Of a DNA stretch of 64,000 nucleotides, positions 9,001 through 12,000 are shown piece after piece. The stretch lies in NCBI RefSeq assembly GCF_054482595.1, contig NZ_CM137008.1, one strand, 5' to 3'. Made by a program: the position numbers. The first letter of the stretch is position 1, and each line of letters begins with the position of its first letter.

Positions 9001-12000
9001 TTATCTACGTTCTATTTACAGCAGCACATCCAGCCCGTGTTTTTGCACAATGCTGAGCAGTTTTAATGAAATGCCATTGGGGCGTTTAGCGCCACTTTCC
9101 CATTTTTGTACAGTTGAAACGCTGGTATTGAGATAGTGAGCGAAGACGGGCTGACTCACTTTTAATTTTTCCCGCAGTGCTTTTATCTCAACAGGTTGTA
9201 GGTCTTGCACGCTGGTCAGGCAGGCTTTGTCAAAAGTACGCATCGTTTCGGCAGAAATAGCATCGACGCTGGACAATCCAGCCGCTGCGCTGTGAATAGC
9301 CTCAAATGCAGGACTTTTAAATTTAGTTTTTGCAGTCATAGCAGATCTCTGTCAGTTCTTTAGTGTTAATCATTGCTGTTAGCTGGGCTTTCGTCAGGAA
9401 GGCATAATGCTTTGCAAGTTCACGAAACCCAGCCAGTTCCTGACTATTGATGTTCGACATATCCTGTTTTGCATATAAAAACGTGTAAAACCAATTGCTT
9501 CCCCCTTTTGCCAGAATAATTGCACGCTCACGATTTTGGTGAAGGCGCTTTTTAAAAACGCCACCACCAAGTGCATCAGCTTTACCTTGCTCCGTTTCTA
9601 AAATGGCCCGGCACAACTCTTCGTCTGTTATTGCATGAGACCTGGCTTCCCTTGCAAACCATTTGGTTTTAAACACGCGCATATCGTTGAGGTCCTGTTA
9701 TTAAAGTATATCACCAAGTGCAATACTTTATCCCTTATTCCCAACCCAATCGCGAAAATGCATATCAGCTTGCCCTATGATTTTTGTTTCTTCGAGCAGC
9801 CTCGAACTTTTCCCACAACACCGTAAAAGTTGCAAAAACGTTAAATGCGTCACACATTTCAATGTTAAAGTGGTCGGCTTTTCCCCTGAAACATGCCACG
9901 GGTAACACCATGAGTGAATTTATTGCCGAAAACCGCGGCGCGGATGCCATCACCCGACCGAACTGGTCAGCCGTTTTCTCGGTGGCGTTTTGTGTCGCCT
10001 GTCTGATTATCGTTGAGTTTTTGCCCGTCAGTTTGTTGACGCCAATGGCCCAGGATTTAGGCATTTCGGAAGGGGTTGCCGGGCAATCGGTGACCGTGAC
10101 CGCCTTTGTGGCAATGTTTGCCAGTTTGTTTATTACCCAGACAATTCAGGCCACTGACCGCCGCTACGTTGTTATTTTATTTGCCGTTTTGCTGACGCTC
10201 TCCTGTTTGCTGGTTTCCTTTGCTAACTCATTCAGTTTGCTTTTAATTGGTCGTGCCTGTCTGGGGCTGGCGCTGGGCGGGTTCTGGGCGATGTCGGCGT
10301 CGCTGACCATGCGTCTGGTACCGCCGCGTACGGTGCCGAAGGCGCTGTCGGTGATCTTCGGCGCGGTTTCTATTGCGCTGGTGATTGCCGCACCGTTGGG
10401 CAGTTTTTTAGGCGAGCTTATCGGTTGGCGCAATGTCTTTAATGCGGCGGCGGTGATGGGCGTGCTGTGTATTTTCTGGATTATCAAATCATTGCCTTCG
10501 CTGCCAGGCGAACCCTCGCATCAGAAACAAAATACTTTCCGCTTATTACAACGTCCGGGTGTGATGGCAGGGATGATCGCCATCTTCATGTCTTTCGCCG
10601 GGCAGTTTGCTTTCTTCACGTATATTCGCCCGGTGTATATGAACCTGGCGGGATTCGGCGTGGATGGCTTAACTCTGGTGCTGTTGAGTTTTGGTATCGC
10701 CAGCTTTATTGGTACGTCGCTTTCGTCGTTCATTCTTAAACGTTCGGTAAAACTGGCCTTAGCAGGCGCGCCGTTAATACTGGCTGTGAGTGCGTTGGTG
10801 CTGACGTTGTGGGGAAGCGATAAAATCGTTGCTACCGGCGTGGCGATTATCTGGGGGCTAACTTTTGCATTGGTTCCTGTCGGCTGGTCAACGTGGATCA
10901 CCCGCTCACTGGCCGATCAGGCAGAAAAAGCCGGGTCTATTCAGGTGGCGGTTATTCAGCTTGCTAATACCTGTGGCGCGGCAATCGGCGGTTATGCGCT
11001 GGATAATATTGGTCTGACTTCGCCGTTGATGTTGTCCGGCACATTGATGTTGCTGACGGCGTTATTGGTCACCGCAAAGGTGAAAATGAAGTAACGTATT
11101 TACAGGAGGGTTATTTCTCTGGCGGGAAAGCTCTCCTGTTCTGCCCCCTGATAACGCTTGATCAGGTATTGTTCTTATCTTGTTGTTATTTCCATTATTC
11201 CGCCTGTATTCATCATTTGCTAATCATGAATCATCATTTTCCCTCATGTTAAAGAAAGGTCATTTAATCTGAACGAATAGCGACAGGGATGACAAATGGC
11301 AGGGAAAGCGCATGGGAATGGCGAGCGTCGGGGCGATAACACCATATGTGGATTGGGGGATCGTTTACGTCGTCTGACCGCCGGTATTTGCCTGATTACA
11401 CAAACTATATTCCCTGTTATGGCCGCTGCCCCTACGCATATTAATCATGCGCATTCGGATACTGCCACGTCCCTGATCCTGCCGAACGTTAAAACTATTC
11501 CATACACCCTGGGGGCATTGGAAACGCCACCAACGGTCGCGGCACGCTTTGGTATCACCGTTGATGAATTACGTCGCCTGAATCAGTTTCGTACCTTTGC
11601 GCGGGGCTTTGACAATGTGCGTCAGGGCGATGAAATAGATGTGCCCCTCATTAACAGTAATAGCCCTGAAGCGCGCAACCTGAAAGCAATGCAGATGGAG
11701 CGCGACGGCAAAGATCCGCAAATGCAGGTCGCGGAAGTGGCGCAGCAAAGCGGAACACTTTTAGCTCGCGATATGGACAGCGAACAGGCGGCGAGTATGG
11801 CGCGTGGCTGGGTGGCTTCTTCTGCATCTGCGCAGGCAACGGACTGGCTCAGTCGTTGGGGAACTGCCCGGGTATCTCTTGGTGTGGATGAAGATTTCAG
11901 CCTTAAAAGCTCTTCATTCGAATTTCTCCATCCCTGGTACGAAACGCCGGATAACCTGGTCTTCAGCCAGCACACACTTCATCATACGGATGATCGCACT

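Follow-up and report, generated by a model that had tools for sequence, protein, structure and literature searches.

A toxin-antitoxin gene pair of the HigB-2 (PF06296) type between yicN and nepI of Escherichia coli, and its probable loss from K-12

A toxin-first gene pair and its surroundings

The window is the whole stretch of DNA that was analyzed, 64,000 nucleotides of contig NZ_CM137008.1 (RefSeq assembly GCF_054482595.1). ORF calls in the window identified a gene pair with adeQ, yicN and nepI as its neighbors, in which the toxin gene comes first and the antitoxin gene second; the calls agreed exactly with an earlier note on this DNA, which had described a two-gene, toxin-first module with a 17-nt overlap at 9016-9682. 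RefSeq names the two products "type II toxin-antitoxin system RelE/ParE family toxin" and "helix-turn-helix domain-containing protein". The coordinates of the genes and of the features around them are collected in Table 1.

Table 1. Features of the yicN–nepI region, in window coordinates
Feature	Position	Strand	Remarks
yicN	8421/8448..8900	+	neighbor on the antitoxin side
REP/BIME cluster	8906..9008	.	downstream of the antitoxin gene; three REP-like units as inverted repeats
Partial REP	about 8906-8925		
Inverted REP	8946-8975		
Degenerate REP	8990-9008		
Segment absent from K-12	8976..9815	.	840 bp; a 41-bp scar in K-12 instead
Antitoxin gene	9016..9339	-	107 aa, ATG start, begins MTAKTKFKSPAFEAIH
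Toxin stop/antitoxin start overlap	9323..9339	-	17 nt; presumed translational coupling
Toxin gene	9323..9682	-	119 aa, ATG start, begins MRVFKTKWF, ends CYDCKN; PF06296 'RelE'/HigB-2-type
Relic-matching toxin codons 29-35 (ETEQGK)	9580..9598	-	survives in the K-12-type empty site
Toxin start ATG	9680..9682	-	
Shine-Dalgarno AGGA	9693..9696	-	
Candidate operator	9702..9730	read on minus	inverted repeat TAAAGTATTGCAC-TTG-GTGATATACTTTA; 13-nt arms, 85% complementary
Likely -10 element TATACT	9705..9710	-	inside the right operator arm; aligned across genera
Operator core half-sites TTGCAC/GTGATA	9709..9723		
nepI	9910..11094	+	neighbor on the toxin promoter side; ATG at 9910

The lengths of 119 and 107 aa and the 17-nt overlap were unchanged in all seven further loci compared, namely the O157 locus L002 and six loci from six other genera. 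Comparisons between genera gave dN/dS values of 0.06-0.13 for the toxin and ~0.04 for the antitoxin, and within E. coli the values were 0.13 and 0.20, respectively; both genes are under purifying selection. This selection, together with matches of the products to the Pfam families PF06296 and HTH_3, establishes that the pair does not consist of chance ORFs. No contig was found for a 92%-identical variant of the toxin (P0006). The earlier note had also placed a REP element beside the pair, and here too the analysis agreed: the stretch 8906..9012 matches the REP consensus by eye and occurs at 11 places in the median E. coli genome, and is therefore a genuine REP/BIME.

Relationship of the toxin, antitoxin and operator to known systems

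Analysis of the toxin against Pfam reported PF06296 as its sole family (E 9.8e-42, 142 bits), with residues 1-113 aligned to model positions 1-120 of 120. PF06296 is named 'RelE' and was formerly DUF1044. No match to the Gp49 family (PF05973) was obtained even at E values up to 10, the HMM search was likewise negative for PF05015 and PF09907, and neither NCBIfam nor PADLOC held a model for the toxin. We also scanned Vibrio cholerae HigB-2, using a sequence 100% identical to PDB 5ja9_C. HigB-2 itself fell in PF06296 (E 3.3e-8) and its Gp49 score was insignificant (E 0.21), a placement that agrees with a recent review (Gerdes 2025, PMC11980606). The description of the toxin in the earlier note as a member of the 'HigB-2/Gp49-like RelE superfamily' is therefore right as to HigB-2 and wrong as to Gp49.

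Sequence similarity between the toxin and HigB-2 was too low for a direct comparison: phmmer and a 30-sequence profile run against the PDB found nothing, and hhalign of the toxin against HigB-2 returned a probability of 3.7%. The link was instead built through Pfam, a fold search and a bridging alignment. The fold search assigned the toxin to the RelE/BECR fold, with HigB-2 as the best structural match. Searching 1.84 billion representative proteins with a profile yielded 1865 family members at E <= 1e-3, and the bridging alignment combined diverse family members, including forms with a long Gly/Lys-rich β2–β3 loop, with HigB-2. This alignment revealed invariant columns at L23, K44, R46, R53 and K72 (toxin numbering). 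K44, R46, R53 and K72 align with K49, R51, R64 and K84 of HigB2, and Y70, a position occupied by Y or F across the family, aligns with Y82. The active site of HigB2 comprises R51, R64, Y82 and K84, where alanine substitution cuts activity 170- to 3000-fold (PMC5416850). All four catalytic positions are thus kept in the toxin, three of them invariant throughout the family, and R46, R53, Y70 and K72 form its putative active site. At its C-terminus the toxin also has a helix (98–106) and a strand (110–115), both typical of the family and missing from HigB-2.

The antitoxin matched HTH_3, an XRE/Cro-type HTH (E 1.2e-7), as expected from the Cro/C1 HTH that had been read from its sequence. It also resembles the C-terminal part of the Pfam family MqsA_antitoxin (E 1.1e-5). 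Its scores fell below the cut-offs of both TIGR03830 (MqsA; 41.0 bits against 61.8, profile positions 47-119) and NF041265 (NadS; 41.3 bits against 60). The protein holds a single Cys and lacks the N-terminal CxxC(G) zinc-ribbon of MqsA, although its C-terminal HTH is similar. Membership of the MqsA or NadS families was ruled out on the basis of these sub-cut-off scores, the alignment of the C-terminal HTH only and the missing zinc-ribbon. The best solved relative of the antitoxin is V. cholerae HigA-2 (5jaa; E 9e-10, residues 46-102), in which a disordered N-terminal neutralizing segment precedes a C-terminal HTH dimer (PMC5416850). An AF2 model of a toxin-linker-antitoxin fusion, made from a 7-row paired alignment, was uninformative, with the antitoxin N-terminus left undocked (pLDDT < 50, overall pTM 0.47).

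The candidate operator repeat is situated between 20 and 48 nt upstream of the toxin start codon. We compared the upstream regions of eight loci, representing two E. coli alleles, Citrobacter, Salmonella, Klebsiella, Dickeya, Yersinia and Morganella. The sole conserved block was the palindrome TAGCAC-N3-GTGCTA followed by TA(T/C)A(C/G/T)T, so that the palindrome overlaps a -10-like hexamer, and its conservation spans unrelated genomic contexts. The E. coli version, TTGCAC-TTG-GTGATA, departs from this consensus at two positions. A consensus scan for promoters and terminators reported no sites, and no canonical -35/-10 (sigma-70) pair. This placement is similar to that of the HigA2 operator, a single 7-bp inverted repeat that starts past the −35 element and covers the −10 element (PMC11006873). 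The half-site sequence and the base-contacting residues differ from those of HigA2, and autorepression at the conserved palindrome is therefore something that we infer, with good support.

Comparison with characterized systems revealed both shared and distinct properties. V. cholerae HigBA-2 (HigB-2, Q9KMA6, and HigA-2; PDB 5JAA, 8A0X) has in common with the pair the PF06296 domain, the Arg/Arg/Tyr/Lys positions and the toxin-first order. The antitoxin appears to share the HigA-2 layout of an N-terminal neutralizing segment and a C-terminal XRE HTH, and the candidate operator is placed over the likely -10 element in the way of the single inverted-repeat operator of HigBA-2. The two systems differ in sequence, with a toxin identity of only about 14-25% that depends on the alignment and no direct sequence match. 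They differ also in the β2–β3 loop (6 residues in the toxin, 12 in HigB-2), in the C-terminal helix and strand (about 98-115) that HigB-2 lacks, and in the operator sequence, with a candidate consensus of TAGCAC-N3-GTGCTA in the eight loci and TGTACGC-N5-GCGTACA in HigBA-2. The base-contacting residues R68, E71, N72 and R77 of HigA-2 correspond in our alignment to S75, Q78, K79 and A84 of the antitoxin (PMC11006873). Finally, HigBA-2 resides in a superintegron, whereas the present module is in the core chromosome.

The positional ortholog of the pair is relBE3ST of Salmonella Typhimurium, a 667-bp module divergent from nepI that encodes proteins of 119 and 107 aa with a 17-nt overlap, 70% (toxin) and 80% (antitoxin) identical to those of E. 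coli. It carries the name 'relBE' despite its toxin-first gene order, and consists of a RelE-like relE3 (SL3743/STM3777) and an Xre-like relB3 (SL3744/STM3778) (Lobato-Márquez et al. 2015, PMC4366850). No other member of the subfamily has a reported toxicity test. Expression of RelE3ST lowered cultivability, and RelB3ST protein was detected yet gave no neutralization (PMC4366850). The primers published for cloning relE3ST match the toxin gene in the Salmonella locus (L006) exactly, and the printed RelB3 forward primer is one A short compared with the genome; because of this missing A, the failure to neutralize may be a cloning artifact. In a literature search no work on the E. coli pair itself turned up, nor any dealing with yicN or nepI together with a toxin-antitoxin system or with the RefSeq accessions.

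Other systems are more distant. RelBE of E. coli K-12 differs in that RelE belongs to PF05016, the antitoxin gene comes first, and RelB is a ribbon-helix-helix protein rather than an XRE HTH protein. Gp49-type HigB (PF05973; Acinetobacter baumannii HigBA2, Mycobacterium tuberculosis HigB1), the HigBA systems of Rts1 and K-12, and SehAB share with the pair the RelE/ParE superfamily, the toxin-first order and an HTH antitoxin. SehB and K-12 HigA are proteins of about 140 aa with an architecture unlike that of the antitoxin. SehAB was rejected as the Salmonella counterpart, SehB having 142 aa and being related to K-12 HigA, and A. baumannii HigBA2 was rejected as a counterpart for its GP49-domain toxin.

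Distribution of the pair and history of the site

The pair is annotated by RefSeq in 1716 of 5426 complete E. coli genomes (32%), always between yicN and nepI; O157:H7 genomes among the matches listed carry it. When the 840-bp segment was used for comparison, it was found full-length, in single copy and on the chromosome in 1716 of the 5426 genomes, at 97.3-100% identity in 1715, and neither partial forms nor plasmid copies occurred in this set. Strain HS-02 (79.9% identity) was considered as an intermediate, decayed allele and rejected: its copy is homopolymer-ridden between perfect flanks, an assembly artifact.

Alignment of the site with K-12 confirmed the statement in the earlier note that K-12 has no such pair between yicN and nepI, the 840 bp being absent and a 41-bp scar standing in their place. 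Within this scar, 19 nt (GAAACGGAACAGGGCAAAG, toxin strand) correspond to codons 29–35 of the toxin gene, with 16 of the 19 positions identical and a shuffle p of about 0.01-0.02 for a match only 19 nt long. The reading frame is preserved, and each of the three mismatches is synonymous and falls at a third codon position. ETEQGK, the peptide encoded, is peculiar to the toxin of E. coli, and the corresponding residues in other genera are AAMQGK, ATLQGK and similar sequences. The 20 nt of scar upstream of the relic had no match anywhere in the module. Three other empty-site strains shared both the junctions and the relic with K-12 and had 2–8 substitutions in the 210-bp intergenic region as a whole; these common features point to the empty site being one old deletion allele. 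One gap would have taken the promoter together with the first 28 toxin codons, and a second gap toxin codons 36–119, the antitoxin gene and one REP unit, ending exactly at the REP retained by K-12. K-12 would then be among the roughly two thirds of sequenced E. coli that share this allele, with its left edge at the REP. Since K-12 has kept a 19-nt in-frame toxin relic, it appears to carry a deletion scar, and the direction of change reads as loss in the K-12-type lineage rather than gain in the lineage of the window, which makes the window arrangement apparently ancestral and that of K-12 derived.

Analysis of other genera revealed that the order nepI ← → toxin–antitoxin → ← yicN is shared with Citrobacter koseri and Klebsiella oxytoca; in Salmonella the nepI side of the arrangement was found. 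The nucleotide identity of the module between E. coli and Citrobacter, Klebsiella or Salmonella was 70–78%; of the flanking genes, nepI was ~78% identical (C. koseri and Salmonella) and yicN 76% (C. koseri). The module has therefore, on these values, diverged to the same extent as its flanks, which fits common descent at the nepI–yicN site. In Dickeya, Yersinia and Morganella the module has unrelated surroundings, with the Morganella copy ~1 kb from an integrase gene; the module has thus also moved at some time in the deeper past. Its modest dip in GC content (43-45%, compared with 50-55% in the flanks) is compatible with that older history of movement. The module is best viewed as a long-standing resident of the nepI–yicN gap that was inherited vertically in Escherichia, Citrobacter, Klebsiella and Salmonella.

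Proposed mechanism, alternatives and significance

We hold with considerable confidence that the pair is a genuine toxin-antitoxin module of the PF06296/HigBA-2 family. The fuller statement, that it is a type II operon of this kind which acts by the mechanism outlined below, resided at the site for a long time and was lost from K-12, we consider probable. The toxin, with its RelE-type fold, would most likely enter the ribosomal A site and cleave translating mRNA by means of R46, R53, Y70 and K72. The antitoxin would dimerize through its C-terminal XRE HTH and use its conserved N-terminal segment to neutralize the toxin. By itself or in complex with the toxin, it would repress the operon at TTGCAC-N3-GTGATA overlapping the -10 element, and the 17-nt overlap would couple translation of the two genes. 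RNase activity, ribosome dependence, neutralization and autorepression are in each case what we infer from family membership, fold and residue conservation.

The earlier note had read the pair as a small accessory insertion, with the adjacent REP as a possible mark of the insertion point. A recent horizontal insertion of the 840-bp module beside REP, with K-12 as the ancestral empty site, would explain why the module is present in just 32% of complete E. coli genomes, and could draw on the GC dip and on the unrelated contexts outside the four genera, including the nearby integrase gene in Morganella. However, the module occupies the same position in Citrobacter, Klebsiella and Salmonella, with synteny in three genera. 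It has diverged as far as nepI and yicN have, and the in-frame ETEQGK relic, with synonymous differences only, is present in K-12 and the three other empty-site strains. Target-site duplications, mobile-element genes, partial forms and plasmid copies are all absent, and the 97.3-100% identity among alleles is typical of core DNA. The REP portion up to 8975 also occurs in K-12, where it bounds the deletion on the left rather than marking a point of insertion. We consider recent insertion highly improbable and retain the reading of old residence followed by loss.

More room, if still not much, is left for other views of what the pair does. The toxin could have a RelE-like fold and yet be no ribosome-dependent mRNase, inhibiting some other factor instead, or the pair could have been domesticated, for example as an HTH regulator near nepI. 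The HigB-like SehA inhibits RNase III rather than cutting RNA (PMC12817084), and the fold is therefore no guarantee of RNase activity. The extra C-terminal helix and strand, the unusually long and stable stay beside nepI in four genera, and the lack of neutralization of RelE3ST by RelB3ST in Salmonella point the same way. Against this, the four catalytic positions of HigB2 are conserved and the Salmonella result may reflect cloning; as to domestication, the same operon and operator exist away from nepI, and the 94-nt region upstream of nepI is 100% identical in K-12, which does without the module. We regard this alternative as unlikely. Somewhat less likely still is a sharper form of it, in which a subfamily defined by the C-terminal helix and strand, and linked to nepI since before the split of the four genera, is not a plain mRNA interferase and has another target or mode of neutralization or a co-opted host function; the Salmonella non-neutralization would then be real. 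We give an equally small chance to anti-phage abortive infection as the selected role, with the toxin freed on infection, in place of addiction or a stress response. Several RelE/ParE-superfamily modules are generally known to defend against phage (reviewed in PMC11980606), and the chromosomal copy is under strong purifying selection. However, the toxin had no match among PADLOC defense models and the antitoxin only weak, HTH-level matches, the neighbors adeQ, yicN and nepI do not form a defense island, and two thirds of E. coli manage without the module.

Taken as a toxin-antitoxin operon of the HigBA-2 family, the module is ordinary and of a known kind; it is already annotated in RefSeq, its Salmonella ortholog has already been tested for toxicity, and the practical value is small. 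Three points are added. HigB-2 belongs to PF06296 and not to Gp49, with the E. coli pair as a core member of that family, and the "empty site" of K-12 appears to be a deletion scar in which six toxin codons are left. The scar would thus provide a clean example of the loss of a chromosomal toxin-antitoxin module through two gaps, one covering the promoter and the 5' end of the toxin gene and the other the 3' end of the toxin gene and the antitoxin gene. As the third point, K-12 offers a natural null background for work on the module.

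Toxin alleles and candidate operator

Comparison of the toxin gene with its counterpart in O157:H7 RIMD 0509939 revealed an ATA start codon in place of the ATG found in the window. PGAP places the start of the O157:H7 gene at a GTG two codons further down, giving a product of 117 aa, and this allele also carries G61V and L88I. The O157:H7 toxin may be attenuated or inefficiently translated. Each half-site of the candidate operator core in E. coli differs by one mismatch from the TAGCAC/GTGCTA consensus, which is retained in Citrobacter, Klebsiella, Dickeya, Yersinia and Morganella; the left half-site in Salmonella is TATCAC. 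Lineage-specific substitutions in the E. coli toxin include ETEQ and HQNRER; co-evolution of operator and antitoxin is conceivable.

Features compared between the window and related loci
Feature	Location	Strand	Basis
Toxin gene, O157:H7 RIMD 0509939	L002 (O157:H7 locus) 2403..2762; start codon corresponds to window 9680..9682		sequence comparison
Candidate operator core, TTGCAC-TTG-GTGATA	window 9709..9723		comparison across genera
Module and neighbouring genes in Morganella morganii	L013/L014 1457..4526		gene neighbourhood
iatC-type ORF, 3608 aa	window 11296..22122	+	NCBIfam NF040978 match
Module copy, E. coli HS-02 (NZ_CP172818.1)	L018 2371..3349		alignment
relB3 forward-primer site	L006 (Salmonella) 4344..4364		supplement of PMC4366850 vs genome
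K-12 scar segment, nepI side of toxin relic	L001 (K-12 locus) 2077..2096		without counterpart in window

Salmonella relB3 primer and HS-02 module

The forward primer for cloning relB3, the Salmonella antitoxin gene, is printed in the supplement of PMC4366850 with four A's (ATGTCAGCAAAACTAAATTC), whereas the Salmonella genome has five at this site (ATGTCAGCAAAAACTAAATTC), as does the toxin reverse primer in the same paper. If the primer was synthesized as printed, the relB3 clone would be frameshifted after codon 4, which would account for the lack of RelE3ST neutralisation by RelB3ST reported in PMC4366850. The four-A primer may equally be a mere typing error.

The module in E. coli HS-02 is only 80% identical, and its toxin is annotated as a frameshifted pseudogene. 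Alignment revealed T, C and G homopolymer runs between flanks that match perfectly on either side, a pattern that points to a local error in assembly or polishing rather than to biological decay.

K-12 scar, IatC region and Morganella locus

Within the K-12 deletion scar, the 20 nt between the toxin relic and nepI (CTTGAGCTGGAGTTAAGATC, toxin strand) gave no match when compared with the module; filler DNA and a heavily diverged remnant are both possible sources.

Immediately downstream of nepI in the window, the 3608-aa ORF encodes the inverse autotransporter adhesin IatC, with a score of 1916 bits to the NF040978 N-terminal model across its first 800 aa and approximately 30 Ig-like repeats. 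Since K-12 and O157:H7 instead have yicS directly after nepI, the IatC region is an accessory island distinct from the toxin–antitoxin module. NepI is 394 aa in the window compared with 396 aa in K-12, perhaps reflecting alteration of the 3' end of nepI by the island junction.

In Morganella morganii, the module encodes proteins of the same lengths as in the window (119/107 aa). Another small HTH gene adjoins the module, and approximately 1 kb away lie an AlpA-like gene and one for a phage-type integrase; these neighbours suggest carriage on an integrative element in this species.
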